In this document: in pieces, positions 8,161 to 37,035 of the stretch
Layout: each line of letters begins with the position of its first letter
Numbering within the stretch: position 1 is the stretch's first letter
Sequence record: PP418985.1
DNA from: Escherichia phage UPWr_E1
Length of the DNA: 64,000 nt
Reading direction: 5' to 3' (one strand)
Made by a program: the position numbers and the translations under genes
Notes under the pieces: model-generated
What the model was told of the DNA's origin: nothing
Database searches by the model: none
What the model saw: the letters and a program-made list of their open reading frames with translations, nothing else

Positions 8161-9364
8161 TGTTCTTGATAATGGCTGGCCTCGTGAAGACCGAACGGGT
8201 GTAGGTACGCTCTCTAAATTCGGCGCAGAGATGCGAATCGATTTAAGCAAGGGTTTCCCCTTACTGACCACTAAAAAGATGGCTACAGCCTCTGTAATTG
8301 GCGAGTTGCTATGGTTTATGGAAGGGTCACTTGACCGCCGTCGCTTACAGGAAATTACACGCGGTAAGTTTGACGAAGAAGCCTTTGATATTTGGCGCGG
8401 TAACTGTCTTGATATGAAAGAAAAGAATCCTTTGCGATTCAATGGTTATAATGTCGGCAATATGTATGGTATGGCATGGCGACGCAAACCGATTCATCCA
8501 CACGGGGAAGTCAAAATTAAGCGCGTTAAAAGCAAATACACGCATACATTTAAGCACCCGTGGGTAGAAGACTTTACGCCAACCAATGACACAGAAGACC
8601 GTTTATGTGCTATCTGGCGTGGTATGCGTTATGAAGAGTTTGATTCTGAATATAATCTATTCTTAGTAGCAGACCACTGGAAGACTCAATCTAATTTTGT
8701 TAATGATGCATATTGCTTGTGGGGATTCCAGGAATGGGTAGATGATGGTTATTTCGGTTATCTGCTTGATAGTGATTATCTGGGTGGGGATATGTTCGCA
8801 CCGGATACCACGATCTTTGTTAGTATGGACGTAGACACATCAAGCCATAAAGACGATGAAGAATATGTCTATCGCCCGAAGATTTGGGAAGACCAGTTAC
8901 AAAACGTGATTGAACAAATTAAAAACAATCCAACGGATCGCCGGATCATTATTGACTCATGGAACGTACAAGGAACACATAATGCTGTATTGGGTGTATG
9001 TCATCCGTTCGTACAATTCTACGTCAATGAAGGTAAACTGTCTTGTATGTGGTTTCAGCGAAGCGTAGACAGCTTTTTGGGCTTGCCCTTTAACGTCGCC
9101 AGCTATGCGCTGTTAACTCACATCATAGCGAAAATGTGTGATCTTGAGGTAGGAGAACTGATTTTCTCTGGTGGAGATACTCACATTTACAAAAACCATT
9201 TTGATCAAGTTACGGAACAGTTAAGCCGTGTTCCTTTTGATAAACCAACAATTGAGTTGCCGGAATTTAAATCTTTAGATGAGGTATTGACAAAGACTCC
9301 GAAAGACTTTAAAATTCACAACTATCAAAGCCATCCAGCAATCACCGCTCAAATGGCAGTATAA
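8132..9364 (+). CDS. td: Thymidylate synthase with large internal insertion
   Basis: 410 aa; motifs DRTGVGT, LWFMEG, catalytic Cys in LGVCHPFVQFYV, DRRIIIDSWNV, QRSVDSFLGLPFNVASYALL; about 120 extra residues between the YG.AWRR and DQLQ motifs; no intron. Confidence 0.85.
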   Translation: MKEYLKLLRDVLDNGWPREDRTGVGTLSKFGAEMRIDLSKGFPLLTTKKMATASVIGELLWFMEGSLDRRRLQEITRGKFDEEAFDIWRGNCLDMKEKNPLRFNGYNVGNMYGMAWRRKPIHPHGEVKIKRVKSKYTHTFKHPWVEDFTPTNDTEDRLCAIWRGMRYEEFDSEYNLFLVADHWKTQSNFVNDAYCLWGFQEWVDDGYFGYLLDSDYLGGDMFAPDTTIFVSMDVDTSSHKDDEEYVYRPKIWEDQLQNVIEQIKNNPTDRRIIIDSWNVQGTHNAVLGVCHPFVQFYVNEGKLSCMWFQRSVDSFLGLPFNVASYALLTHIIAKMCDLEVGELIFSGGDTHIYKNHFDQVTEQLSRVPFDKPTIELPEFKSLDEVLTKTPKDFKIHNYQSHPAITAQMAV

Positions 9365-9433
9365 ACAAAGGGGGTCGAAAGCCCCCAATATGGAGGATAA
9401 ACTTGTTCCTGCTAAAATATGAAGTGAGGTAAT

Positions 9434-11677
9434 ATGATTAAAAATGTTGTTAAGTCTTCCGGTCTGACTGTTCCGTTTGAAAAAGAAAAAGTAATGAAAA
9501 TTCTGGAAGCGGCAGCCGAAGGTCATAACGTTGATCCATATGAATTGTTTGATATGGTTGAACCACTTCTGACAGAAGGTATGTCTACCAATGATATCCA
9601 GAAAGTATTGATTAAGGTCGCCGCAGATAACATTACTGTAGAAACACCTGATTATCAATATGTAGCAAGTAACCTTGCAATGTTCGCGCTTCGTAAATCA
9701 GTATACGGTCAATTCCAACCTATTGATTTTTATAGCCATATTGAGCGTAATATTGCAACCGGAAAATATGATCGCGAAATTCTGCAAAAGTATTCCCGTG
9801 AAGAAGTGGAATATCTGGAGAAATTCATTGATCATAAACTTGATTTTAAAATGACCTATGCTGGTGCGATGCAGTTAAAAGAGAAATATCTTGTTCAGGA
9901 TCGCAGCACTAAGAAAATCATTGAAACACCGCAATTTGCGTATATGTTGATCGGTATGTGCTTACATCAAGAAGAGACAGAAAATCGACTTGAACATGTG
10001 ATTGATTTTTATAATGCTGTTGCGAATAAGCAAATCTCTCTGCCTACTCCGATTATGGCGGGTGTGCGTACTCCAACACGACAATTTAGTTCGTGTGTGG
10101 TGATCGAATCTGATGATTCATTGCAGGGTATTAATGAAACCGCAAATGCAATCATCAAGTATATTAGCAAGCGTGCTGGTATCGGTATCAACGCTGGCAT
10201 GATTCGCGCGGAAGGATCTAAGATCGGGCATGGTGAAGTTCGTCATACTGGCGTTATCCCATTCTGGAAACATTTTCAGACTGCCGTTAAGTCATGCTCA
10301 CAAGGCGGTATTCGTGGCGGGGCGGCGACTCTCTATTACCCAATGTGGCATTTAGAATTTGAAAGTCTTATTGTGTTGAAGAATAACAAAGGGGTAGAAG
10401 ACAACCGCATTCGCCATCTTGATTACGGCGTACAGATTAATAACCTGATGGTAGAGCGATTCCTTAAACGGGATTACATTACTCTGTTTAGTCCAGATGT
10501 TGCGGGTGGCTTGTTGTGGGATCTGTACTTCCGAGATGAGGAAGGTTTCCGCCAGCTTTACGAAAAACTGGAAAAAGATCCGAGTGTTCGTAAAACTCGT
10601 GTTAAAGCCGAAGACCTGTTTTTAGCGGTGGCAATTGAACGTTTTAACACTGGTCGAATCTATCCAGCGTTCACAGACAACATGAACAATCACGGGGCGT
10701 TTATTCGCAATGTAGCACCGATTAAACAATCTAACCTGTGTTGCGAAATTGCACTGCCTACTAAACCAATGGGGCGTGATGATTCAGAGATCAGCCTATG
10801 TACTTTGGCAGCATATGTTTTAGGTAATTTCGATATCGAAAACATGGAAGAAGTAGAACGCATTGCTATGGTTATGGTGCGTGCACTTGACAACTTGTTA
10901 GATTACCAGGATTATCCCGTAGAACAAGCTCTGACAGCAAAAAAACGTCGCTCTCTGGGTGTTGGTGTGACTAACTTTGCATCATATCTGGCGGATAATT
11001 TCTTCACATATGAAGACGCCAACGAGTTTACGCATAAAACGTTTGAACGCTTGCAATATGCTCTGATTAAGGCTAGTGTGCAACTGGCTAAAGAGAAGGG
11101 TGCTTGCGAACTGATGCACGAAACACGTTATGGTCGCGGTGAACTGCCTATCGACTGGTACAAAAAGACAGTAGATGAACTGGTTGACCCGGTGTATGAG
11201 ATGGATTGGGAAGAACTGCGCGAAGACCTGAAAAAATATGGCATTCGTAACAGTACGCTTTCGGCGCTGATGCCTTGTGAGTCGTCTTCTCAGGTGTCTA
11301 ACAGCACAAACGGTATTGAACCGCCTCGCGGGATTGTATCGGTTAAAGGATCGAAAGAAGGGCAATTTAATCAGGTTATTCCGAACGTAGAGAATAATGC
11401 TGATGTTATTGACTTGCTTTGGACACTGATCAAGAAAGGTAACAAGCCTTATCTGACACTGGCAGCGATTATGCAGAAGTTTGTCGACCAGGCGATTAGT
11501 TCCAATACATCCTATGATCCAAGCACTTATAAGACTGGTAAAGTCGATATTGCTGATGTATTAGATGATATGTTATTTGCTCAATATTACGGCCTCAAGA
11601 CACTGTATTACGCTAACGTGCGTGATGGTGCTGATGGTACGGAAGACGCTAGCGAATGTTCATCTTGCAAACTGTAA
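9434..11677 (+). CDS. nrdA: Ribonucleotide reductase large subunit
   Basis: 747 aa; class Ia NrdA-like with ATP-cone N-terminus and C-terminal CxxC tail; synteny td-nrdA-nrdB. Confidence 0.9.
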   Translation: MIKNVVKSSGLTVPFEKEKVMKILEAAAEGHNVDPYELFDMVEPLLTEGMSTNDIQKVLIKVAADNITVETPDYQYVASNLAMFALRKSVYGQFQPIDFYSHIERNIATGKYDREILQKYSREEVEYLEKFIDHKLDFKMTYAGAMQLKEKYLVQDRSTKKIIETPQFAYMLIGMCLHQEETENRLEHVIDFYNAVANKQISLPTPIMAGVRTPTRQFSSCVVIESDDSLQGINETANAIIKYISKRAGIGINAGMIRAEGSKIGHGEVRHTGVIPFWKHFQTAVKSCSQGGIRGGAATLYYPMWHLEFESLIVLKNNKGVEDNRIRHLDYGVQINNLMVERFLKRDYITLFSPDVAGGLLWDLYFRDEEGFRQLYEKLEKDPSVRKTRVKAEDLFLAVAIERFNTGRIYPAFTDNMNNHGAFIRNVAPIKQSNLCCEIALPTKPMGRDDSEISLCTLAAYVLGNFDIENMEEVERIAMVMVRALDNLLDYQDYPVEQALTAKKRRSLGVGVTNFASYLADNFFTYEDANEFTHKTFERLQYALIKASVQLAKEKGACELMHETRYGRGELPIDWYKKTVDELVDPVYEMDWEELREDLKKYGIRNSTLSALMPCESSSQVSNSTNGIEPPRGIVSVKGSKEGQFNQVIPNVENNADVIDLLWTLIKKGNKPYLTLAAIMQKFVDQAISSNTSYDPSTYKTGKVDIADVLDDMLFAQYYGLKTLYYANVRDGADGTEDASECSSCKL

Positions 11678-16968: not shown

Positions 16969-17417
16969 GCATAGAAATATTGCCTACACAAGAGCAGATA
17001 AGCAATTTTAATCTGGTTGATTATCTGGGGATAGGCGCAAGCATTATTATCCTGATGGTGTTTTCAATTTTCGTGATACACTGGATGTTTAAGAAAGCGC
17101 ATAAGAATTTTCAGACCGCCATAATCCATGTCTTCGCTGTACCTATTGTATTTGCTCTTTCTTCGTGTACAATGGACCATTATTCACAGGAACCGAAATT
17201 ACATCCTCCACTACCAGCACCAATAGAAAAAGTTGACATTGACCTGAAAGTGGATACAATAGACGGTAAACCTAGAGTTTCTATGTCGTGGGAGGACTCC
17301 CAAAAATTTAGAGTCTGGTTGGCTGATATTAAGAGATATACACTTGAAAGTAAGTTGATCATGTGTTATTATCGCAAAGAACTTAATGAGGAACGGTGCA
17401 AACCGAAGGAGAAATAA
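16965..17417 (+). CDS. Putative o-spanin lipoprotein with N-terminal hydrophobic extension
   Basis: Strong RBS aaggagg; internal lipoprotein signal MFKKAHK..AVPIVFALSSC (lipobox LSSC), proline-rich PKLHPPLPAP; an alternative start at the ATG near 17085 would give a 110-aa lipoprotein. Confidence 0.4.
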   Translation: MSIEILPTQEQISNFNLVDYLGIGASIIILMVFSIFVIHWMFKKAHKNFQTAIIHVFAVPIVFALSSCTMDHYSQEPKLHPPLPAPIEKVDIDLKVDTIDGKPRVSMSWEDSQKFRVWLADIKRYTLESKLIMCYYRKELNEERCKPKEK

Positions 17418-27430: not shown

Positions 27431-27682
27431 ATGGCTAACATCGAAACCGCAAAGAAAATCGCTAAAGACCTGAACGTTAAAGGCTTCCGTAAACTGAAAT
27501 TACAGCGTGTACGCTACACCATCGGCAAACAGTGCTCTTTCATGAGCGAAGAAGTTGCTAACAGCCTCATCGATAATCTGATTGCGGCTGGCTGGGAAGT
27601 TGCGGATCTGAAAACTTGCCGCGAACTGGCTAACAAAGGTCTTTTAGATTCTGTTACTATCAAACCAATGGGGGCAGCGTGA
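27431..27682 (+). CDS. Hypothetical protein, 83 aa
   Basis: Starts MANIE, sharing its first 16 nt with ORF 29565. Confidence 0.5.
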   Translation: MANIETAKKIAKDLNVKGFRKLKLQRVRYTIGKQCSFMSEEVANSLIDNLIAAGWEVADLKTCRELANKGLLDSVTIKPMGAA

Positions 27683-28395
27683 AACAAAAATTAATATTCT
27701 GCAACTTTGACGGATCGGGGATAATGGGGCTAGAATGGGCTAAAGCAGGTCATAAGGTGATCTGCTTTAATGCTGACGATGGCGACCACGGTACATACAA
27801 AAAATATAATACCCGATTTGAACATCCAAACATTACCTATGTAAACACATGGATTGATTTGAACTGGCTGGAAAGAGCAATGGACCTTGAATGGGGGAAA
27901 CCGGATATTATATTTGCATTCCCACCGTGCACCAATTTAGCTGTTAGTGGCGCTGCACACTTTGAACGAAAGAAACGAGAGCAAGGACCATTAATTCAAG
28001 TTCATGATGTAAGGGCAGCTAAAATAACCGCTTATTTGGGCGAATGGTTAGGAGTTCCCTACATGATAGAGAATCCTGTAAGCGTTATCTCTAGCATGTG
28101 GCGTAAGCCTGATTATATGTTCCATCCGTGGGAATATGGCGGTTATTTGCCGGAAGATGATAAACATCCTACGTTTCCTGAGTATATTGCCGCCCGTGAT
28201 ATGTACCCGAAAAAGACTTGCTTATGGACCGGACAAGGCTTTATAATGCCAGAAAAGAAACCGTTGCAGATTAATAAAGGGTACAGTAAACAGCATTCTA
28301 AGCTAGGCGGGAAAGGAACCAGAACAAAGACTATCAGGTCACTTACACCGCGAGGATTCGCAAAGGCAGTATTTGAAGCCAATAAGGATCTATGA
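27679..28395 (+). CDS. DNA (cytosine-5)-methyltransferase-like protein
   Basis: 238 aa; motif I-like FDGSGIMGLEWAKAGHKVICFNADD, motif IV-like FPPCTNLAVSG, motif VI-like ENP; short for a complete C5-MTase. Confidence 0.4.
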   Translation: MKQKLIFCNFDGSGIMGLEWAKAGHKVICFNADDGDHGTYKKYNTRFEHPNITYVNTWIDLNWLERAMDLEWGKPDIIFAFPPCTNLAVSGAAHFERKKREQGPLIQVHDVRAAKITAYLGEWLGVPYMIENPVSVISSMWRKPDYMFHPWEYGGYLPEDDKHPTFPEYIAARDMYPKKTCLWTGQGFIMPEKKPLQINKGYSKQHSKLGGKGTRTKTIRSLTPRGFAKAVFEANKDL

Positions 28396-28724
28396 TGAGA
28401 TTGTTTAAGTATTCGCTAACGTCAAATTACGATAAACAAGGTCATTGCATCCGTTGCCCTGATTGCCATAGCCATAACATCGAAAGCAGGATCACCGATC
28501 ATATTGATGGACTTTGGTCGCCAGCAAGCGAGATAGAATACTATTGCGCTGATTGCGGAATTGTAGTAGCATATTGGGCATACGGATCATATGATCCCTA
28601 CTTCCAGATGGGAGAGCGTTCAATCCCTGCGCTTATCTGGAGAATTAAGAACAATATCCGCCATTCATGGGATGAGTTCTTAAAAGATATTGATTTACGT
28701 GATGATCCATTCAGGAGACTATAA
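28392..28724 (+). CDS. Zinc-ribbon protein, 110 aa
   Basis: CIRCPDCHSH ... CADCG cysteine pairs. Confidence 0.45.
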   Translation: MMRLFKYSLTSNYDKQGHCIRCPDCHSHNIESRITDHIDGLWSPASEIEYYCADCGIVVAYWAYGSYDPYFQMGERSIPALIWRIKNNIRHSWDEFLKDIDLRDDPFRRL

Positions 28725-28725
28725 C

Positions 28726-29244
28726 ATGAACCGTTTAACACCTAAACGCCGTTACTATACCAATACTAAAAACTTTGTCATCTCTGTTTATGAGGCGTGG
28801 TTAGAAGATGGCTATATCAACATGAACCCAGATTATCAGCGTCCTTTAGTATGGGACACCGAAAACAAACGTATGTTTATCGAAAACCTGATTAATGATT
28901 TTCCGGTTGGTGCTATCGCAATGGCTAAGATTGATGATGGCTCTCGCTATGAGATCGAAATCGTGGACGGTAAACAGCGTTTAAACGCAATATTCTCCTT
29001 TATGAAGGATGAGTTTAGCATTGCTGGTAATGATGATTCTATGCTGTATTACAGTGATTTTACGCCAGCAGAAAAGCGACGTTTCCGAAATCTCGGACTA
29101 CCCGCGATCATGATGGAAGAGAGCACAAGAGAAGACCGATTAGAGTATTTCTACAAAACAAACTTTTTCGGTGTTCCTCAATCGGAAGAACATCGCCAGC
29201 ATGTGATTGCCCTATTGCAAGATGAGCAATTAAAAAATAACTAA
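28726..29244 (+). CDS. DUF262 / ParB-like nuclease-domain protein
   Basis: 172 aa from ATG after RBS caggaga; NPDYQRPLVW and VDGKQRLNAI match the DUF262 signature (compare DGQQR). Confidence 0.45.
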   Translation: MNRLTPKRRYYTNTKNFVISVYEAWLEDGYINMNPDYQRPLVWDTENKRMFIENLINDFPVGAIAMAKIDDGSRYEIEIVDGKQRLNAIFSFMKDEFSIAGNDDSMLYYSDFTPAEKRRFRNLGLPAIMMEESTREDRLEYFYKTNFFGVPQSEEHRQHVIALLQDEQLKNN

Positions 29245-29252
29245 AAAAGTTG

Positions 29253-29281
29253 TTGACAGGGGATCATCGATCCCCTATAAT
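29253..29281 (+). promoter_or_regulatory. PeSL-type early promoter
   Basis: TTGACA, palindromic spacer ggggatcatcgatcccc, TATAAT. Confidence 0.55.
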
Positions 29282-29499: not shown

Positions 29500-29528
29500 T
29501 TGACATAACAGAGGGTGTATATCATAAT
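29500..29528 (+). promoter_or_regulatory. PeSL-type early promoter
   Basis: TTGACA; hairpin gggtgtat-atcataa-tacaccc containing CATAAT. Confidence 0.55.
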
Positions 29529-29777: not shown

Positions 29778-29782
29778 TTTAA

Positions 29783-29802
29783 GGGGCGTAAAGCCCCTTT
29801 TT
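29783..29802 (+). terminator. Rho-independent terminator
   Basis: ggggc-gtaaa-gcccc followed by ttttt. Confidence 0.65.
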
Positions 29803-29843
29803 CATAAATATAGGTTTATAGGTTATCAACTAGAGGATATAAA

Positions 29844-31895
29844 ATGTTTAACTTAGAAATCGACGATCTAATGATTGAATCTTTCGAGAAATGGCTGTTG
29901 ACGGAAGAGGAAGAAAACTTTGGTAGTATTGCTCCGGTACAGTGCTTAAAGCCTAAGCAGAACCCTAAACAGCTTTTTGCAGTACAGACACGCGATAAAG
30001 ATGTGATTGTCCGTCTTTGTAACTTCACCAACAAAACACCTAAAATCATTCGTCTTGGTGACAAGACCGCACATGTTGTACTGTGCGAAATGAACAAAAG
30101 CGGTCGTATTGTACAGCTTAAAAATGGTCTAGGCGATAACCCGATTGCAGTTATGGCAAGTGCTTTTGATGTGGTTATGGAAACAGCCCGTAAAGCGCAA
30201 TTAGACGCTGTTATGTTCCGTTTTAACGTATCCCGCATGAAAGGTAAGACCGAACTGGTTAAGCGCGTTATAGAGCGTTTGGTGCGTCGTACACCTAAGT
30301 TTGAAGTATTCCAGCAGGAAGTAATGACCAGCAAAAAGATCGCTTTAGTTGTTGTCAAGCGTCGCGGGATGGCGATTGATAAGATTAAAGGGATTAAACT
30401 TGATGATTCCCTGTTCACTAAAGTAGAAAGTGATTTAGGTGATCGCTGGGTATCTAAAGCTACTGGCGAATCTCTGACTAAAGATGAAGCGTATGCGGCT
30501 AGCCTTGCATCAGAAGAAGAACGAAACGCAGAAGCGGAACAACGTGTAGCGGCTAAGTCTCGTTTGACTAAAGAAGAAATGCTGAAAACTCAAGCGACCT
30601 ATAACAGCGACTATGTGAATCATCCAGAAAAAATTAATCTTAAACCGGAAGAAGATATCACCGAAGCCGAACCTAAGAAACAGTTTAATACTCTGATTGA
30701 TCGTCAAGCCTTAGAACGTTCAACCGCTCGTTCTCTGAATGACTGGACAAGTGATATTATCACTCGCTACGGTTTCATGCGTACTATTTTTGAAAGCGAA
30801 GCCGATGCAAAATACGCAGTAAGCGAACTGGTAAAAGTTCAGGACCAATATGATCCGTTGTCTGCGGAAGTTATTGCAGCATCAATCAAACGCTTAAAAG
30901 AAATCATGAGCGAGGAAGTATTCGAAAACAAGATCACCGCCCTGGCAATGGATCGAGTAGACCAGTCTATGCCAGCAGATGTAAAAGCTGAAATGCTTCG
31001 TAGTCACATCACACAGATTAAAACCGATGCCCTACGTAATGTTGCTTCCGGTATGTTTGAAGCAATTGCTAGCAACATGGGTGAAATGATGGCAAATATT
31101 GATCTTGATCTGCCGGGCGCGGAAGGTTTTGTGTTGAGCGAATATGCCGATGCAGCATACATCAATATGAACAACTTCCTAACCGACCGTAAGCTGGAAG
31201 AGTTTGACGGCATCGCAGATCCAGAAGAATTGGTCAAGATGTGCGATGCACTGGATAATGCCTTCTCTAACTATGGCGTTAAACTTGATCCGGGTACTAT
31301 TCTGTATCGTGGTATGGACTTCCGGTCTCAAATGTGGGAAACTGCACGTAAGCAAAAAGCGTTTTACTTTAAAAACTATGTGAGCACTTCCCTTGCACCT
31401 AACATTTTTGGTGGCTGGAATGCAAACGTGGCTAGTGCCGTTGCTGGTGTAGATTCTATGGCTGGATCTCGCGGTGAAGGTGGCGCTAATGTTGCTTTCT
31501 CCATTGCTGGCGCGGAAAACATCCCTGTATTGCCAGTAGGTAACAAGGCATTTGCTTACAAAGAATGCGAGATTTTACTTCCTCGCGGTGTTGTGTTATC
31601 CTTTGATACGGTAACTCGTGCTACGGCATCGACGGATTCACAAGAAACTTATTACATTGAGGCACATATTATGAACAAAAATGAACTGGCAGCATTACAA
31701 GAATCTGGCGAGATGATCGCGGACGGTGATGCATTCATCCGTGAAGGTGTTGTTAAACCTGCTTCTGACCTGTCTTTCTCCAGCTTTATTACCGAAGCTA
31801 AAACCGAACGTAAGAAAGCAGATAAGGCAACTCTACGTCAGCTTATCGCTGATCTGGTATCTGTAGACGCAATGCCAGATAAATTTAAAATGTAA
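29844..31895 (+). CDS. alt: Alt-like ADP-ribosyltransferase (packaged, modifies host RNA polymerase in T4)
   Basis: 683 aa (T4 Alt is 682 aa); C-terminal R-S-E type ART motifs LYRG, YVSTSL, ECEILLP. Confidence 0.7.
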   Translation: MFNLEIDDLMIESFEKWLLTEEEENFGSIAPVQCLKPKQNPKQLFAVQTRDKDVIVRLCNFTNKTPKIIRLGDKTAHVVLCEMNKSGRIVQLKNGLGDNPIAVMASAFDVVMETARKAQLDAVMFRFNVSRMKGKTELVKRVIERLVRRTPKFEVFQQEVMTSKKIALVVVKRRGMAIDKIKGIKLDDSLFTKVESDLGDRWVSKATGESLTKDEAYAASLASEEERNAEAEQRVAAKSRLTKEEMLKTQATYNSDYVNHPEKINLKPEEDITEAEPKKQFNTLIDRQALERSTARSLNDWTSDIITRYGFMRTIFESEADAKYAVSELVKVQDQYDPLSAEVIAASIKRLKEIMSEEVFENKITALAMDRVDQSMPADVKAEMLRSHITQIKTDALRNVASGMFEAIASNMGEMMANIDLDLPGAEGFVLSEYADAAYINMNNFLTDRKLEEFDGIADPEELVKMCDALDNAFSNYGVKLDPGTILYRGMDFRSQMWETARKQKAFYFKNYVSTSLAPNIFGGWNANVASAVAGVDSMAGSRGEGGANVAFSIAGAENIPVLPVGNKAFAYKECEILLPRGVVLSFDTVTRATASTDSQETYYIEAHIMNKNELAALQESGEMIADGDAFIREGVVKPASDLSFSSFITEAKTERKKADKATLRQLIADLVSVDAMPDKFKM

Positions 31896-31912
31896 TTTTT
31901 AAGAAATAATGG

Positions 31913-31941
31913 TTGACTCAAACGGGGACTAGTTTTATACT
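31913..31941 (+). promoter_or_regulatory. Early promoter embedded in terminator-like hairpin
   Basis: TTGACT-17-TATACT; hairpin cggggactag...ctagccccg followed by tttt may also terminate alt transcripts. Confidence 0.45.
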
Positions 31942-31973
31942 AGCCCCGTTTTCTGTTATATGGGAGGTTTAAA

Positions 31974-32798
31974 ATGTTCAAACAATTACAGGATTTTCGT
32001 CTTTCAGAAGAATCACGCGAATCAATGATGGAACGTATGGATAATTACATCGAAACATATGGCATTGAGGGGATTAATGGTTACATGATCACTGAGATGA
32101 TCAGCGATCAGATTAACTTTGATGATTATGTGAAGATTATCCGCTTCCTTGAGCGCGAGACACAAGATTATGGATTTGTCAAGAAAATCATTAATGTGAT
32201 GTATGAAGTACACTCCGAAGATTTTGGAGATAATGTATTCAAATATTACAAACATAACAACATAACCCCCGCAGAATATAATGCAATCTGTGATTATGTG
32301 TCTGAACAATACGAATGGGTAAATGGTGCTCTCTTAGGCGAGGAAGACATGACCGACGAGATATCAGAGATTGTCGATTTGATGGATTGTGTCATGGATA
32401 AAACCGAAAAGTTAAACGGTACTCTTTATCGTGGTCAACATCTTGACATTCAAACAATAGAGCGTATTATTGAAGATAAGGAATTTACCTTTAAAAACTT
32501 TGTGTCGACCAGCATGACACCGATCATTTTTGGAGGATGGCTTTCAAACAGCACTAGCCTTTATTGTGAGAATCGATATGAATCGATGACCGGAAAGATG
32601 CAACATTCTTGTAATGTATCATGGGTAATTGACGTAAAAGATCATAAAGGTTTTGTTGTTGGGTCGATTGCATGGAATCCTTGCGAATGTGAAGTAATTT
32701 TACCGCGCGGGACTTGCATAAAGGTAAACGACGTAGTAGAATCCTTCGGCGATGAGAATCGTAGACAATTTACAATTTTCGGTGAGGTGACTAAATGA
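31974..32798 (+). CDS. ADP-ribosyltransferase, Alt C-terminal domain paralog
   Basis: 274 aa; GTLYRG, FKNFVSTSMTPIIFGGW, CECEVILPRG aligns to Alt catalytic domain. Confidence 0.6.
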   Translation: MFKQLQDFRLSEESRESMMERMDNYIETYGIEGINGYMITEMISDQINFDDYVKIIRFLERETQDYGFVKKIINVMYEVHSEDFGDNVFKYYKHNNITPAEYNAICDYVSEQYEWVNGALLGEEDMTDEISEIVDLMDCVMDKTEKLNGTLYRGQHLDIQTIERIIEDKEFTFKNFVSTSMTPIIFGGWLSNSTSLYCENRYESMTGKMQHSCNVSWVIDVKDHKGFVVGSIAWNPCECEVILPRGTCIKVNDVVESFGDENRRQFTIFGEVTK

Positions 32799-33280
32799 AA
32801 ATGATTAAACTGATTGGTCTTGCGGCTGCATTCATGCTTACTGGTTGTGCTAACATGGAAGCTATGATGAATGCTAAATCAGATCCGGTTTTCTTGCTTC
32901 GTGAATGTAAAGCAGCATATGCAAGCGATGATCAGATCGAATCGTGCTTTATTTCTAAAATGGAACGTCGAGACGTGGATCGCGTTAAAGTTGGTTTAGC
33001 ACCACAGACGCAGATGTTCAAGGATGCAATCAAAGAAGCGCGGGAAAAGAAAGCACGAGAAGAAAAGAAGCGTCAAGAAGAATTGCGCAAGCAGAAAGAA
33101 GAGTCTATACAACTTGAGAAGATGAAAGCACGCGATCGTTGTATTATCATGTCTGACATGCAGATAGAGCAAGAAGCAAGAAAGGCAGCATTAAACGGTG
33201 ATTATGACCGTTATGAAGAACTTAACAGCGCAGAATTTCAAGCTAAGGCACTAAAATATTGCAATGATTTAGCAAAATAA
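32795..33280 (+). CDS. Putative lipoprotein
   Basis: 161 aa; signal peptide with lipobox LTGC; lysine/glutamate-rich helical C-terminal half. Confidence 0.5.
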   Translation: MKMIKLIGLAAAFMLTGCANMEAMMNAKSDPVFLLRECKAAYASDDQIESCFISKMERRDVDRVKVGLAPQTQMFKDAIKEAREKKAREEKKRQEELRKQKEESIQLEKMKARDRCIIMSDMQIEQEARKAALNGDYDRYEELNSAEFQAKALKYCNDLAK

Positions 33281-33282
33281 AA

Positions 33283-33301
33283 AGGCGGGGATAATCCCCG
33301 C
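33283..33301. terminator. Bidirectional terminator between convergent genes
   Basis: ggcgggga-taa-tccccgcc flanked by A-run upstream and T-run downstream. Confidence 0.6.
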
Positions 33302-33311
33302 CTTTCGCTTA

Positions 33312-34244
33312 TCAGAACCAGTTAGTGACAGTATTCACCACACGCCCACCAACGCCATTTAGACGCGATAAAGCATTACCAGCAGCAGATAACCCACTAT
33401 CAAGTAAATTGTTCCCGAAAGTGTTTGTTATTGCGTTTATGGCCTTATCCTCAATCCATTCCCGCGCGGCTTGCTCGCCTACTGCACCAGTTTGCATAGA
33501 ACGATATGCAAAAGTAACATCGAATGTTGTGATTTCGTTGTTATTTTCATAGGTTAATTCCGGTGCACTCACACCAACAGGAACACAACCACTAAACATC
33601 ATGATCGTGTGAGGAACACCCATCCTATTATGCAAATTGACCTGAATATCTGCTTCAACGTCAACAGGAAGCGCACGAAGCCCTGTAACGGGGTCTTCTA
33701 CTGAGTTAACCCAATCCTGCATTGCTCTATAGTTTGATGCGCTAGAGTCCATTCTAAAGCTCAATACAAGAGGATCAAAATCACGTCCGGTAATTCGAAT
33801 GTTTGGCGCATTGTGGTTACGGTCCATTTCATAACTCAATCTGTTTTCTGGAACCTTAACTGCATACACCAGAAGACCGCTTGTCTTATATGCCATATTG
33901 AACCAATCAAGAGCATATGTACCAACATCAAATTGCCCCAGAAGAGATTGAACTACGCGGGATGACATTGCACCCAAAAGATATTTTTTGACACCGGATG
34001 AATCAACCGCACGCCTAACGCCCTGTACAGCAAGATTAGTCAATGCGTCAGTATAATCACCACGAGTAATCCCGAAATAGTCATTTAATGCATTTGGTAT
34101 AATATCATATACCGCACCACCCATACTTTCTAGGATCGCTTGTGTCTTATTACTTGGTGTGGTGGCAAATGCCACGCTGAATAAGTTAGATCGCTGAAAG
34201 TCAAGGTTAGCGGCTTGTTCGTTAAAATCATTTAAATCAAACAT
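33312..34244 (-). CDS. 54: Baseplate tail-tube initiator gp54
   Basis: 310 aa; size and order 51-27-28-29-48-54 as in T4. Confidence 0.6.
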   Translation of the reverse strand: MFDLNDFNEQAANLDFQRSNLFSVAFATTPSNKTQAILESMGGAVYDIIPNALNDYFGITRGDYTDALTNLAVQGVRRAVDSSGVKKYLLGAMSSRVVQSLLGQFDVGTYALDWFNMAYKTSGLLVYAVKVPENRLSYEMDRNHNAPNIRITGRDFDPLVLSFRMDSSASNYRAMQDWVNSVEDPVTGLRALPVDVEADIQVNLHNRMGVPHTIMMFSGCVPVGVSAPELTYENNNEITTFDVTFAYRSMQTGAVGEQAAREWIEDKAINAITNTFGNNLLDSGLSAAGNALSRLNGVGGRVVNTVTNWF

Positions 34245-35302
34245 TATGCCGCACTCCCAAATATAGTACCACGGGAAAGTGTCAAGATCTCCCTAAATGA
34301 TACTTCCAGAACAAAGGTACTAGGCAAGTTAGGAGAAATAGCAAGGCCATTAAACTTACCATCAGGCGACTTGTCCAGACGTACACTTGAGATCTGAGCG
34401 GGACCAAATGCATCGCTACGCCCTTCAAATGATGTACGCTTACCGAAGTTAGAGATCATCCATATTGTCGGGTTAGATACAGTAATCACGTTGGATAGGA
34501 AATCAGTGATCCCCTCAAAAAGAGTATCATTTTTCTTTGCTTCGGCTGGCGTCGATTTGCTCAACAGCGTATTTTTATACCATGCATCAACTTCCGCTTT
34601 TAATTCTTTTGCGGTGCTGGAAATACCGCTAGAACCATAAGACAATTCTAAAAACGTTTCGTATATGATCAGAATATTGCGAAGGTCTTCAATACTACGT
34701 GGGGTTAGATGCCATACATAGTTTTTAGTTCGTGCGTCAGCACCAGCATACATGCTTCGAGCAGTATTATAAATCTGTTCACCGTGATCGGCAAGGTATC
34801 CACCAGTAATACTTTCTATACCACCAAAAACGGCAGTAGATGCCATATTTGATAGAGCGCCACCTAAAGTACCGCCACCACGAGAAATAACAGATTCGCC
34901 AACATCATTAAACTTATGGCTTGCGGCGTCAACGTCAGATTGACTACGAGGAAGAAGAATATTAGCAATTGCCTCGCGGTCAAATGCAGTATTTCTTCCG
35001 CCCAGATTTAAATCAAAACCAGCAATATTAACGCTACCACCAAAACCACTAGCAACATTTTTCTTTTTTCTGAAATCACGCAATGATCCAGTTGTGCGAG
35101 ATGTATAATCATATGCAGTGAATAACAGACCATTATTATATAAGTCGTTGATATAATAACCGCTAGCATCATTACCGCTAGCACGTTCAGCGGGGAATTG
35201 AGCGGTTAATGTTTTCCCTTTATTTTTTGAGGTAAAACCAGCGGAGGTTTTAACCCCCGCTTTAAAGCTATCAACGGCATCATTGATAACACTAATTTTC
35301 AT
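34244..35302 (-). CDS. 48: Baseplate tail-tube cap gp48
   Basis: 352 aa; synteny and size. Confidence 0.6.
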   Translation of the reverse strand: MKISVINDAVDSFKAGVKTSAGFTSKNKGKTLTAQFPAERASGNDASGYYINDLYNNGLLFTAYDYTSRTTGSLRDFRKKKNVASGFGGSVNIAGFDLNLGGRNTAFDREAIANILLPRSQSDVDAASHKFNDVGESVISRGGGTLGGALSNMASTAVFGGIESITGGYLADHGEQIYNTARSMYAGADARTKNYVWHLTPRSIEDLRNILIIYETFLELSYGSSGISSTAKELKAEVDAWYKNTLLSKSTPAEAKKNDTLFEGITDFLSNVITVSNPTIWMISNFGKRTSFEGRSDAFGPAQISSVRLDKSPDGKFNGLAISPNLPSTFVLEVSFREILTLSRGTIFGSAA

Positions 35303-37035
35303 TAAAAGATCCCCATATTAATTGTACCGGGTGCATCAATTCGAGTTGTAGGCGCGCCCTGTTTAATAGTTCTATTGTTTGTTACAATTTGTGTATTATT
35401 TACATTTGCCGTCTGGTTTGTCGTTTGTTGCTGGATTGCAGCTTGTTTCTGCATTTGTTCAGTACGGTCCGCTTGTCTTGCTGTTTCCGTTTCAGTTGCA
35501 GGAACAGGTTTAGTTTGAATCACACCCTTAGTTTTATCAGCATACATCTCATCAAATTTTTCAATAAGACGCTCTAACTGAGAACGATCACTTTCAACTA
35601 ATGTAGGATCTTGAACTTGCTCACGGTAAACATCAATATCCTTTTTCAACTCTCCCATTTTTTCTTTGTCATAATCACCGCTCAAGTTCTCCATAACTTC
35701 ATTAATATTATTGATCGCACCCTCGCTTTTAATTCTAAGTTTACGACTAGCAGATCGTTGTTCAGCAGAAACAGACTCATATTCCCCGCGCTTTAATTCT
35801 TCTTGTCGCTTCTCTGCGTCAACATCCTTTTGATCTCGCCAACCCAGACTAACAAGTCCTTCATTAACTTTATCTTTAATGGAGTCACCGATAGCCTCAC
35901 CAATATCACGGGCTTTTCCGGTCCAACCAGTACGCTCTCCGTATTTGTCCTCTTCATGCTCGGATTCAACTTTATCCATCAATTCAAGTTCTCTTTCGGT
36001 TGGCGTATATCCCTGTGAAACAGCAGACTTCAAAGCACCATATTCTAACTGATCAGCATAATCACCCATACCAGGGATCATGCGAAGAATTTTAGCAATA
36101 CCGGTAGTGATAATTCGATCAAGTTGGATAAAGGTTTTATAGAATGCATCACCAATACCCATAACAAGAGATTTAATTAATTCTCCATATTCACCCTTAG
36201 ACCAATAATCTCGAACTTGACGAATAGTTGTTAAAATATCGCTAATAGGACCAGCCCATTCTCCGGCCTTATCCATAAATTCATCGAATTTTGTTTCGAA
36301 TAAATCACTCCAATATCTGAAATGAATCATCAGGGTATCAATGGCAAAAACAACACCCATCAAAATAGCACCCCATTTTGCGGCTTCTGCCATAGCGGTC
36401 AAGGTGATCTTAAATAACATCCCTAAGACCTTATTAGAGATACCTATGGTTTCTTTAAATCCTCCACGAACAACTTTAAGAAGATTTTCCATAGAATCCG
36501 CATTGCGCTTATCTGCGGCGTTCTTTTTCTTCCGTTCCTCAACATCTGGTTTTTTCTTTGGAAGACCTTGATAGTTGTCATTATTAGGCTGTTCCGGTAC
36601 AGTAGGCAAAACTGGCTGAGGTGATGGCATTGTTTGCGGTTGTTCCGGTTTTTTCAGTGCTTCTTCAATCGCACCAATACCGCTAGCCATTTTACTGACA
36701 ACACCAAATCTACGTTCCATCATAACACCAAAACCACGTAATTTCTCATTCATCTGAGAAGAGAAATTATTGAGTTTTTGCAATTCTTCATAAGTTTTTT
36801 GGGTATTGCCAGCGGTAGATTGTGTATTTTCTGCCGTCAATTCATTGGCTGCGGTGTTATCCTCTACCGCACCAACAACTTCATTAGATTTTTGTTCTAC
36901 TGTCTCCGCCACCAATTCGGTAGCGGCTTGCAAATTATCAATAGAATCAAGTTTATCTAATTTGTTAAGTTTATCAATCGGATTTTCTTCCGCTTCCTTG
37001 CGCATCCCGCGAAATGATGTTAATGCGTCATTCAT
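35302..37035 (-). CDS. 29: Baseplate hub / tail length determinator gp29
   Basis: 577 aa; extended helical protein; synteny and size (T4 gp29 590 aa). Confidence 0.6.
   Translation of the reverse strand: MNDALTSFRGMRKEAEENPIDKLNKLDKLDSIDNLQAATELVAETVEQKSNEVVGAVEDNTAANELTAENTQSTAGNTQKTYEELQKLNNFSSQMNEKLRGFGVMMERRFGVVSKMASGIGAIEEALKKPEQPQTMPSPQPVLPTVPEQPNNDNYQGLPKKKPDVEERKKKNAADKRNADSMENLLKVVRGGFKETIGISNKVLGMLFKITLTAMAEAAKWGAILMGVVFAIDTLMIHFRYWSDLFETKFDEFMDKAGEWAGPISDILTTIRQVRDYWSKGEYGELIKSLVMGIGDAFYKTFIQLDRIITTGIAKILRMIPGMGDYADQLEYGALKSAVSQGYTPTERELELMDKVESEHEEDKYGERTGWTGKARDIGEAIGDSIKDKVNEGLVSLGWRDQKDVDAEKRQEELKRGEYESVSAEQRSASRKLRIKSEGAINNINEVMENLSGDYDKEKMGELKKDIDVYREQVQDPTLVESDRSQLERLIEKFDEMYADKTKGVIQTKPVPATETETARQADRTEQMQKQAAIQQQTTNQTANVNNTQIVTNNRTIKQGAPTTRIDAPGTINMGIF

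Follow-up and report, generated by a model that had tools for sequence, protein, structure and literature searches.

Organization of the locus

Two tandem genes for ADP-ribosyltransferases (ARTs), followed directly by a gene for a lipoprotein, were perceived in a sequence-only reading of DNA from Escherichia phage UPWr_E1 (sequence record PP418985.1; the window, i.e. the whole stretch analysed, has 64,000 nucleotides). This arrangement raises the question of how the three genes are organized and what the second transferase and the lipoprotein do. The three ORFs were found on the + strand at 29844-33280, in the order read. They make up the "alt" locus of a coliphage of the RB49 type (Krischvirus; RB49/Phi1/JSE group), which has already been catalogued: the nucleotide identity of the window with deposited Krischvirus genomes is 97.8%, and the first two genes carry the labels Alt-like ART and ADP-ribosyltransferase there, while the third is called a putative lipoprotein in one of the records. 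The sequence-only reading overlooked this prior annotation, which extends to dozens of Krischvirus genomes, and the partial publication of the locus, as the paralogy of alt was published in 2006.

All three genes are real and under purifying selection. The dN/dS values, determined versus two relatives, are 0.04-0.12 over all three genes, and the locus is kept in 58 phage records with 95-99% nucleotide identity; the ORFs are therefore more than chance. The order alt, PeSL cassette, gene of the short transferase (ART2) and lipoprotein gene is retained in relatives whose proteins are only 40-49% identical, and the neighbours of alt are the same as in T4 (genes 54/48/29). The features are:

29781..29802, + strand: intrinsic terminator hairpin (AAGGGGC-GUAAA-GCCCCUU plus T run); -12.9 kcal/mol, z -3.4
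29803..29810, + strand: late-promoter-like box CATAAATA (T4 consensus TATAAATA); distance to the start codon of alt, 34 nt
29844..31895, + strand: alt, 683 aa, full-length ortholog of T4 Alt (Pfam, PHROG, BLASTP); dN/dS 0.04-0.06
31896..31973, + strand: PeSL-type promoter/terminator cassette (promoter scan, folding, conservation)
31974..32798, + strand: ART2 (homolog of RB49ORF183c), 274 aa, stand-alone ART of the Alt lineage (Pfam, PHROG, BLAST, hhalign, fold); dN/dS 0.06-0.10
32795..33280, + strand: predicted lipoprotein precursor, 161 aa (phrog_16112, function not assigned in PHROG); dN/dS 0.11-0.12
32795-32845, + strand: predicted lipoprotein signal peptide (lipobox LTGC, Cys18 at 32846-32848, +2 Ala)
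33281..33305, both strands: bidirectional terminator that separates the lipoprotein gene from the convergent gene 54 (terminator scan; -19.6 kcal/mol on +, -20.8 kcal/mol on -)
33312..37035, - strand: genes 54 (tail tube initiator), 48 (tail tube cap) and 29 (tape measure), convergent late structural genes, by which synteny with the alt locus of T4 is established

The best explanation as a whole, to which we assign a probability of roughly 60%, is that the locus splits into two transcription units, namely alt and an early operon consisting of ART2 and the lipoprotein gene. New in this analysis are the T4-like layout with a terminator and a late-promoter-like box before alt, the conserved PeSL before ART2 and the lipoprotein gene, the gene order at 40-49% identity, the tiny, phage-restricted lipoprotein family, and the swapping of the mature part of the lipoprotein. 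The locus is ordinary apart from the role of ART2 and of the lipoprotein, which are both candidates for functional work.

Alt and its upstream signals

The 683-aa protein had been read as Alt-like, and this assignment holds for its full length. BLASTP aligned residues 31-681 end to end with T4 Alt (27% identity, E 7e-62), and the PHROG 802 profile (phrog_802) covered residues 16-683 with 4e-180. From the N-terminus onwards, the protein consists of a 'Tevenvirinae_ADPRT' region, the ART domain, and a C-terminal tail. The score for Pfam PF03496 was 37.2 bits (gathering score 23.4); for P0050, which is 99% identical, the precomputed Pfam assignments comprise both PF26846 and PF03496. The motifs are LYRG (487-490), STS (514-516), and ECE (574-576); R489, S514-T515-S516, and E574-C575-E576 align with LYRS, STS, and EME of T4 Alt. 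By its sequence, i.e. the full-length homology and the catalytic R, S-T-S, and E-x-E, the protein belongs to the T4 Alt family.

The hairpin at 29781..29802 closes an early ORF cluster 5' of alt. T4 alt shows the same upstream terminator layout, and a conserved terminator at this site was reported by Nolan et al. 2006 (PMC1524935). The adjoining box CATAAATA occurs only once in the window, a count not above chance, and deviates by one mismatch from the late consensus. At the same position, T4 possesses the hairpin, TATAAATA, and ACTAGAGAGGAT, the window the hairpin, CATAAATA, and ACTAGAGGAT; a hairpin plus (T/C)ATAAATA precedes alt in both. By analogy, CATAAATA would function as a late promoter.

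T4 Alt is expressed late, incorporated into the prohead core, cleaved N-terminally by gp21, and injected (PMC9958956). It ADP-ribosylates Arg265 of RNA polymerase alpha and further proteins of the host. Orthology with T4 suggests that the alt product would be an arginine-specific mono-ADP-ribosyltransferase, which is built into the prohead core, cut by the prohead protease, and co-injected with the DNA. The injected enzyme would then modify RNA polymerase alpha and other host proteins. Note that the orthology follows from the alignments, whereas timing, packaging, and targets are transferred from T4 by analogy.

The PeSL cassette between alt and ART2

The intergenic cassette contains an AT-rich tract, followed by a promoter with -35 TTGACT (31913-31918) and -10 TATACT (31936-31941) at a spacing of 17, which reached 10/12 in the promoter scan. 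A stem-loop (31920-31951; -18.9 kcal/mol, z -5.4), followed by UUUUCUGUU, accommodates the -10 element in its loop and 3' arm, and a Shine-Dalgarno sequence GGGAGG is present. The cassette thus has a sigma-70 promoter, an upstream AT-rich tract, and a G/C-tract stem-loop between or over -35 and -10, the features of the PeSL cassettes of RB49/Phi1, which were described and experimentally validated by Arbiol et al. 2010 (PMC2839356). In the relatives with proteins 40-49% identical, the core is nearly invariant and shows one compensatory change in the stem. The stem-loop would halt a transcript coming from alt; RNA initiated at the PeSL promoter would be devoid of the 5' arm of the stem-loop and would therefore read through.

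ART2, a short transferase of the Alt lineage

As proposed from the sequence, the two ARTs share a catalytic region. PF03496 also matches ART2 (59.2 bits, 4.6e-16; gathering score 23.4), which is 37% identical to the catalytic core of Alt (E 1e-16) and 31% identical to residues 414-594 of T4 Alt (2e-23). The catalytic motifs had been identified correctly, but two of the reported strings have to be amended: Alt reads NYVSTS instead of NFVSTS, and the short protein ECEVILPRG. In ART2, the motifs are LYRG (151-154), STS (178-180), and ECE (238-240). The absence of catalytic residues from the 274-aa protein had been named as a counterargument; R153, S178-T179-S180, E238, and E240 are present and invariant in 8/8 aligned family members, down to 25% identity. 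The complete R-S-ExE set supports the notion that ART2 is catalytically intact. An ExE motif predicts arginine specificity. Foldseek related the AF2 model (pLDDT 79) to C3bot2, Vis, Certhrax, and iota Ia (E 2e-10 to 1e-8, probability 1.0); the alignment with C3/Vis toxins comprises about 205-220 columns. According to Pfam score, motifs, and predicted fold, ART2 is an R-S-E clade mono-ADP-ribosyltransferase.

ART2 is devoid of the N-terminal about 420 aa of Alt (PF26846) and of the C-terminal tail. Profile-profile homology is limited to residues 94-261 versus Alt 420-599 (hhalign 99.8%), and full-length homology with T4 Alt is absent, the aligned residues being 94-261 only. The claim of an unrelated N-terminal domain is consequently supported in part: residues 1-93 have no demonstrable counterpart, but residues ~98-150, which had been assigned to that domain, form the helical section of the ART fold and occur in Alt as well.

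For ART2, the proposed alignment with the T4 enzymes, which matched T4 Alt with the 2e-23 given above, yielded best BLASTP E-values of only 0.41 and 1.1 for ModA and ModB. ModA/ModB match phrog_832, which ART2 does not; it matches phrog_15144 (1.5e-195) and falls in 15144/802. On these grounds, membership of ART2 in the ModA/ModB family (PHROG 832) was rejected. A MAFFT alignment displayed an apparent N-terminal resemblance between ART2 and ModA/ModB, which is without statistical support. The PHROG 802 profile alignment of ART2 starts at residue 10; a remote N-terminal homology is possible.

The short gene RB49ORF183c was described as an alt duplication by Nolan et al. 2006 (PMC1524935). ART2 would represent an old duplicate that retained nothing of Alt but the catalytic domain, preceded by a new N-terminus of 93 residues. 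Most likely, the newly infected cell produces it as a third arginine ART, which is not packaged and would act beside the injected Alt and the one ModB-like enzyme that the genome encodes at another site; in JSE, the ModB-like gene is located next to srd and possesses LYRG and ERE. As the non-catalytic parts differ, a different set of targets is expected for ART2.

If ART2 were instead made late, packaged into the capsid, and injected like Alt, the virion would carry two ARTs. Its descent from alt and its position directly downstream would suit this idea, and in Tequatrovirus Shfl2 there are two full-length alt genes in tandem, whose products could both be packaged; moreover, (L/I)xE, possible prohead-protease sites, occur near the N-terminus of ART2, although they are expected by chance. 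We regard packaging as improbable, given that both the ~420 aa N-terminal region (PF26846) and the C-terminal tail are missing, and that a strong terminator separates ART2 from alt and a conserved sigma-70-type promoter of its own precedes it. A functionless, decaying remnant of the duplication is found in T4 at the same position (alt.-1/alt.-2). For ART2, this explanation is effectively refuted by an ORF that is intact in 58 isolates, the dN/dS of 0.06-0.10, catalytic residues that are all invariant down to 25% identity, the confidently predicted ART fold, and the dedicated conserved promoter. A non-packaged enzyme produced after infection is thus the reading we prefer for ART2.

A predicted lipoprotein with an exchangeable mature part

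The start of the 161-aa protein overlaps the stop of ART2 as ATGA. All ORFs of the window were searched with a PROSITE PS51257-style pattern ([LVI][ASTVI][GAS]C, Cys at 15-35). The lipobox LTGC suggested earlier was recovered: MKMIKLIGLAAAFMLTGC fits the PROSITE-type lipoprotein rule with K/R in the first 7 residues (K2, K5), an uncharged h-region (LIGLAAAFM), and the Cys at 18 (L15-T16-G17-C18). All of 10 cluster representatives, with identities down to 23%, retain G17 and C18, and the mature cysteines C38, C51, C116, and C156 are likewise invariant across about 10 clusters, down to the same identity. In the GenBank record of W115, whose authors used LipoP, the homolog is labelled 'putative lipoprotein', and the KFS-EC homolog is named 'Lipoprotein' in UniProt. 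The sequence thus supports a lipoprotein-type precursor. The model of the mature part (144 aa) is all-helical with pLDDT 88, and the Lys/Glu-rich region, already perceived as helical, is a predicted 62-residue helix (72-133). The model matched no fold of any solved structure in the PDB, nor was there a PDB sequence match. The family is small and confined to T4-like phage contigs.

The protein would be a substrate of Sec/SPase II and, because of its Ala at +2, is expected to reach the inner leaflet of the outer membrane, where it would adopt a helical fold stabilised by disulfides. Between phages with 97-99% identity in both Alt and ART2, the identity of its mature part is only ~25%; this domain is exchanged like a cassette among phages that are otherwise nearly identical. 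Isolates contain at least 3 alleles, and metagenomes about 10 clusters; as dN/dS is ~0.11, this diversity is due to old alleles exchanged by recombination and not to ongoing positive selection.

This exchange also bears on the idea that ART2 and the lipoprotein are a mutually dependent functional pair. Their start-stop overlap and strict adjacency are held from 99% to 40% identity; however, such overlaps are routine in T4-type genomes and therefore barely inform about a functional link. The predicted compartments differ, recombination has cut exactly at the junction of the two genes, with an increase of dS from 0.32 to 0.84, and phages with 99% identity in ART2 have 25% in the lipoprotein. Separate swapping counts against interacting partners, which makes a pair very unlikely.

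Our best guess for the role of the lipoprotein is an envelope-level protection of the infected cell, for example superinfection exclusion, which is plausible. The sequence-only reading had named it a candidate for exclusion; no support was found, yet the proposal is not refuted. In favour of such a role, homologs of Imm and Sp (Spackle) were found neither in the window nor in JSE 1-50 kb. Against exclusion, the lipoprotein resembles Cor, Llp, Spackle, or Imm neither by homology nor in its fold, and no correlation was seen between its alleles and the type of the gp37 tip or of the gp29 tape measure. A more specific variant is masking of the phage's outer-membrane receptor, as known for FhuA with T5 Llp and phi80/N15 Cor, which would stop superinfection and the loss of progeny on cell debris. 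A predicted outer-membrane lipoprotein that is encoded behind an early-type promoter, is allelically diverse, and weakly matches Cor (phrog_1119) is compatible with masking. This match (E 0.006), however, is restricted to residues 1-45, the signal peptide, with no stretch passing alone, and the mature part is twice the size of Llp/Cor, all-helical, and without a PDB fold match. In addition, the three alleles do not track the gp37 tip (Whisky matches ECD7, whereas JK32 resembles GEC-3S and PHB13 resembles RB49). With the match confined to the signal peptide and no PDB match, homology to Cor/Llp in the mature domain was rejected, and we deem receptor masking unlikely.

An outer-membrane lipoprotein signal is a hallmark of o-spanins, and this signal plus the conserved cysteines could indicate a lysis component (o-spanin or u-spanin). 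The window, however, contains an o-spanin homolog elsewhere (17085-17417; phrog_812, 6.5e-33), and RB49, JSE, and Phi1 have been placed in the T4 PseT.3/PseT.2 spanin families (PMC6139136). There is neither an i-spanin or other TMD protein beside the lipoprotein gene nor a C-terminal transmembrane segment in its sequence, and the promoter is of the early type. The protein was consequently rejected as a spanin, and a function in lysis is highly improbable.

Envelope protection remains our favoured role. That the lipoprotein founds a new class of early, outer-membrane-anchored exclusion or envelope-protection factors of T4-type phages, with alleles choosing the excluded phages, is a speculative extension that we consider rather doubtful; if true, swappable alleles would set which competing phages are excluded. 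The family is compact, predicted to be well folded, and phage-only, which makes it a cheap candidate for exclusion and envelope tests. Its functions bear on the design of therapy phage cocktails with Krischvirus.

Comparison with known systems

The ART set of RB49-type phages consists of Alt, a short Alt-derived enzyme, and one Mod, that of T4 of Alt, ModA, and ModB. This contrast offers a natural comparison for the division of targets between injected and newly made ARTs. Alt resembles T4 Alt in length, R / STS / ExE motifs, neighbours, and the upstream hairpin with a late-type box; it differs by strong divergence, an N-terminus that is 15 residues longer, and the box (CATAAATA versus TATAAATA). 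Among T-even phages, Shfl2, T2, T6, RB14, RB32, and RB51 have two full-length alt copies in tandem, and 44RR has ORF187c/188c; alt.-1/alt.-2 of T4 are remnants of a tandem copy. Like these duplicates, ART2 is a second alt-derived gene directly 3' of alt and before gene 54. In contrast to them, it is neither full-length nor decayed, but combines the catalytic domain with a novel 93-aa N-terminus and its own early cassette. With ModA/ModB, ART2 has in common the predicted role of a small ART made after infection, the size class, and the R-S-ExE chemistry, but no significant sequence similarity, and the PHROG differs. The C3-like, Vis, and iota-toxin Ia toxins (PF03496) share the predicted fold and the motifs; identity is 12-20%, and ART2 is predicted to be a cytoplasmic phage enzyme and not a secreted toxin.

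The lipoprotein, like Cor (phi80/N15), Llp (T5), and the periplasmic Spackle (T4), is a small exported envelope protein with predicted early expression; it is larger, all-helical, possesses two putative disulfides, and shows no similarity beyond the signal peptide. The cassette that precedes ART2 shares with the PeSLs of RB49/Phi1 (Arbiol et al. 2010; Comeau et al. 2014) the AT-rich tract after the stop codon, the -35/-10 elements, the stem-loop overlapping -10, and the Shine-Dalgarno sequence.

Identity of the locus

The region 29844-33280 holds three genes, and their ORFs agree exactly in position and length with those called in the sequence-only reading:

29844-31895 (+), alt, 683 residues
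31974-32798 (+), ART2, an ADP-ribosyltransferase (ART) gene, 274 residues
32795-33280 (+), lipoprotein gene, 161 residues

This region is matched by 58 deposited phage genomes at 97.6-97.8% nucleotide identity, each covering at least 80% of the query; all 58 are Krischvirus (RB49, Phi1, JSE, FL04, the MIZ phages, and others). RefSeq labels the three JSE genes 'Alt-like RNA polymerase ADP-ribosyltransferase', 'ADP-ribosyltransferase', and 'hypothetical protein'; next in JSE come gene 54, gene 48, and the tape-measure/hub gene, all in convergent orientation. The W115 record annotates the locus as 'ADP-ribosyltransferase (x2)' and 'putative lipoprotein'. Searches of NCBIfam and Rfam gave no match. 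The dN/dS values of 0.04-0.12, computed against JSE and a more distant metagenomic relative, indicate that alt, ART2, and the lipoprotein gene are functional genes and neither chance ORFs nor decaying copies. The identity of the parts is secure; the original observation is confirmed and its interpretation mostly right, for a locus that is ordinary and previously catalogued.

Two ADP-ribosyltransferases with a common catalytic domain

For the 683-residue protein, the match to the Alt PHROG spans the full length (4e-180), and the alignment with T4 Alt comprises residues 31 to 681 (27% identity, E 7e-62). Pfam PF03496 is matched above the gathering score by Alt and by ART2, and the motifs R, S-T-S, and E-x-E are found in both. 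ART2 aligns with residues 414-594 of T4 Alt (31% identity, 2e-23) and with residues 487-593 of the Alt encoded in the window (37% identity, 1e-16). These motifs are unchanged in all eight aligned ART2-family sequences, at identities down to 25%. The AlphaFold model of ART2 (pLDDT 79) resembles C3bot2, Vis, Certhrax, and iota-toxin Ia, with Foldseek E-values of about 1e-10 over ~205-220 columns.

The N-terminus of ART2 had been regarded as an unrelated domain. This holds for the first ~90 residues; residues ~98-150, however, make up the helical portion of the ART fold and have counterparts in Alt. A comparison of the ART2 family with Alt by hhalign, based on small family alignments, gave a single match, which relates ART2 94-261 to Alt 420-599 with a probability of 99.8%; therefore residues 1-93 are without a demonstrable Alt counterpart. 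The alignment of PHROG 802 reaches ART2 residue 10, and this span would pair the N-terminus with Alt 332-414; such a homology may exist, although hhalign supports 94-261 only. The C-terminal tail of Alt (~80 residues) is absent from ART2. A MAFFT alignment suggested an N-terminal resemblance to ModA and ModB. Orthology to these proteins is supported neither by BLASTP, which was non-significant against T4 ModA and T4 ModB, nor by the PHROG assignment, which places the two T4 proteins in a PHROG other than that of ART2; moreover, Krischvirus possesses a modB-like gene of its own. By these comparisons ART2 is not a Mod protein; among the ARTs of T4-like phages it is a third, uncharacterised type of modest interest.

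Regulatory signals and expression

The following signals flank the genes:

5' of alt: terminator hairpin (-12.9 kcal/mol), directly followed by CATAAATA; ~20 nt further on ACTAGAGGAT, then ATG
between alt and ART2 (31896-31973): promoter TTGACT-17 nt-TATACT
overlapping this promoter: stem-loop (-18.9 kcal/mol, z -5.4), with UUUUCUGUU after it
between the lipoprotein gene and gene 54: bidirectional terminator, which ends the ART2/lipoprotein unit

T4 alt has the same upstream layout, but with the consensus late box TATAAATA; by analogy, this supports late expression of alt. The number of late-box motifs is not above chance. The element between alt and ART2 fits the early promoter/stem-loop (PeSL) cassettes of RB49 and Phi1; in other PeSL instances, promoter and attenuator were both experimentally active (Arbiol et al., PMC2839356). 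Because the -10 box of the ART2 promoter sits in the loop and 3' arm of the stem-loop, RNA started there would lack the 5' arm and should escape termination, and alt transcripts would stop at this stem-loop.

Metagenomic T4-like contigs encoding ART2 homologs of 40-49% identity have the gene order Alt (PF26846 and PF03496), ART2, a protein of 155-167 residues, and convergent genes 54, 48, and 29. The 155-167-residue proteins overlap or abut the ART2 stop codon and are themselves lipoprotein-family members, with 28-38% identity (E 1e-20 to 1e-30). The intergenic cassette, TTGAC..AACGGGG..AGTTTTATACT..CCCCGTTTTCT, is almost invariant in these contigs, with one compensatory change in the stem, although the flanking proteins have diverged past 50%. 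The model with the best support combines a late, injected Alt with an early operon whose products are a short arginine ART derived from Alt and a lipoprotein of the outer membrane; the timing of expression is inferred from the conserved signals.

Upstream of alt, three further elements were noticed:

28690-29244 (+): stand-alone GmrSD_N / DUF262 domain of 184 residues (PF03235, 5e-20) without the nuclease C-terminal half
29253-29281 (+): sigma-70 promoter TTGACA-17-TATAAT
29500-29528 (+): sigma-70 promoter TTGACA-17-CATAAT, overlapping a hairpin

The first corresponds to one half of a type IV restriction enzyme, here carried by a phage; it is located ~600 bp 5' of alt and adjoins a DNA methyltransferase-like gene (27679-28395, phrog_757). 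The consensus and near-consensus promoters precede small ORFs and look like further PeSL cassettes in a hyperplastic region.

The lipoprotein and its possible role

The N-terminus of the 161-residue protein conforms to the lipobox rule, which bears out the proposed lipoprotein signal. According to the E. coli sorting rule, Ala at +2 predicts the outer membrane for a lipoprotein, and this is the predicted location of the protein. Among 5.8 billion proteins searched by word index, 41 relatives were found; none has a Pfam domain, and their contigs are all compatible with T4-like phages. When 1.84 billion cluster representatives were searched exhaustively with a profile, only 11 clusters emerged; ten comprise 103-174 residues (nine of these 155-174), and the eleventh is a borderline match of 1252 residues. 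G17, C18, C38, C51, D60, G67, C116, G135, and C156 are invariant across the clusters, a pattern consistent with export of the protein and the presence of two disulfides. AlphaFold predicts an all-helical structure with confidence (pLDDT 88), in which the central helix is 62 residues long.

Several known functions were considered. The only match to Cor (Cor/Llp) is the signal peptide. Foldseek found nothing in the PDB with an E-value below 0.5, which argues against a Spackle-like, Llp-like, or any other solved fold; among viral models (BFVD) the protein's own family alone was matched, and a PDB profile search returned coiled-coil noise only. A spanin was rejected, since the window encodes an o-spanin homolog and RB49, JSE, and Phi1 have been placed in the T4 spanin families (PMC6139136). 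The homolog is a 110-residue ORF with the lipobox ALSSC (17085-17417, +; phrog_812 Rz-like spanin, E 6.5e-33) and the sole other convincing lipobox ORF within the window. No homologs of T4 Imm and Sp were found by a local search of the window and of JSE 1-50 kb, which includes their syntenic positions. This result is compatible with, but no proof of, exclusion by a non-homologous protein. In the searchable library, literature on ORF182c/183c, on virion proteomics of Krischvirus, and on the lipoprotein was limited to Nolan et al. 2006, and no paper addressed the lipoprotein. Its role is a guess; as a cassette-like, polymorphic phage lipoprotein that is easily testable for exclusion, it is of modest interest.

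Alleles and recombination

In comparison with phage JK32 (L004), nucleotide identity is ~99-100% across alt, ART2, and the signal peptide and 40-50% across the mature lipoprotein. Protein identities are as follows.

Protein identity to JK32 and to the related contig L014
Alt: 99%; 98%
ART2: 99%; 97%
Mature lipoprotein: 25%; 26%
gp54: 87%; 95%
gp48: 76%; no value
gp29: 53%; no value

Among isolates, three lipoprotein alleles occur:

Allele A: 50 phages, including UPWr_E1
Allele B: JK32, Whisky
Allele C: AV108, E26, PHB13, G37-3, 011D4, PTE-Eco09

Relative to a third relative (L013), dS is 0.32 in alt and ART2 and 0.84-1.26 in the lipoprotein gene and genes 54, 48, and 29; the rise begins at the ART2/lipoprotein junction and persists through genes 54-29. 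This sharp break in synonymous divergence marks a recombination boundary at about 32850, just 3' of the signal-peptide coding region. Positive selection on the lipoprotein was rejected, because its dN/dS is about 0.11; the jump of dS at the junction, together with this low ratio, indicates that the diversity is due to old alleles moved by recombination and not to rapid positive selection.

As the lipoprotein and gp54, gp48, and gp29 all diverge in JK32, co-variation with gp29 was considered as well; it is contradicted by E26 and 011D4, whose gp29 type is that of the majority although their lipoprotein allele is C. The alleles showed no pattern of co-variation with the gp37 receptor-binding tip. 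The tape-measure/hub protein gp29 (35302-37035, -) is itself very polymorphic in Krischvirus: it is 53% identical to its JK32 counterpart and 77% identical to that of L013 (Alt: 97-99%), and isolates carry three or more types.

Comparison with other T4-type phages

RB49ORF183c, 44RR ORF188c, and T4 alt.-1/alt.-2 have been described as paralogs that arose by duplication of the neighbouring alt gene, and 44RR ORF187c as a full-length alt duplicate (Nolan et al. 2006, PMC1524935). In T4, the Alt N-terminus is repeated as two short fragments after alt, followed by alt.-3 and gene 54; Alt.-3, which occupies the slot of the lipoprotein gene, is an unrelated, cytoplasmic protein. The Tequatrovirus Shfl2 (L006, 1150-5304) has two full-length alt genes in tandem (697 and 685 residues) at the place where T4 has one and the remnants alt.-1/alt.-2, and many T-even records contain two places matching the ART query. 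Two Alt paralogs of intermediate length, P0048 (415 residues, on contigs of about 166 kb) and P0049 (316 residues), have short N-termini and keep the C-terminal tail of Alt (…YDGDHLMETGE…KFKM); several grades of truncation thus appear to exist among Alt-derived ARTs.

JSE (L005) encodes a single ModB-like ART of 167 residues (9296-9799, -), which adjoins srd and lies beside a homing endonuclease gene. LYRG and ERE are intact; the protein is 33% identical to T4 ModB and ~30 N-terminal residues shorter than T4 ModA and ModB. Since this modB-like gene exists besides alt and ART2, Krischvirus has three ARTs, the same number as T4 but in a different combination.
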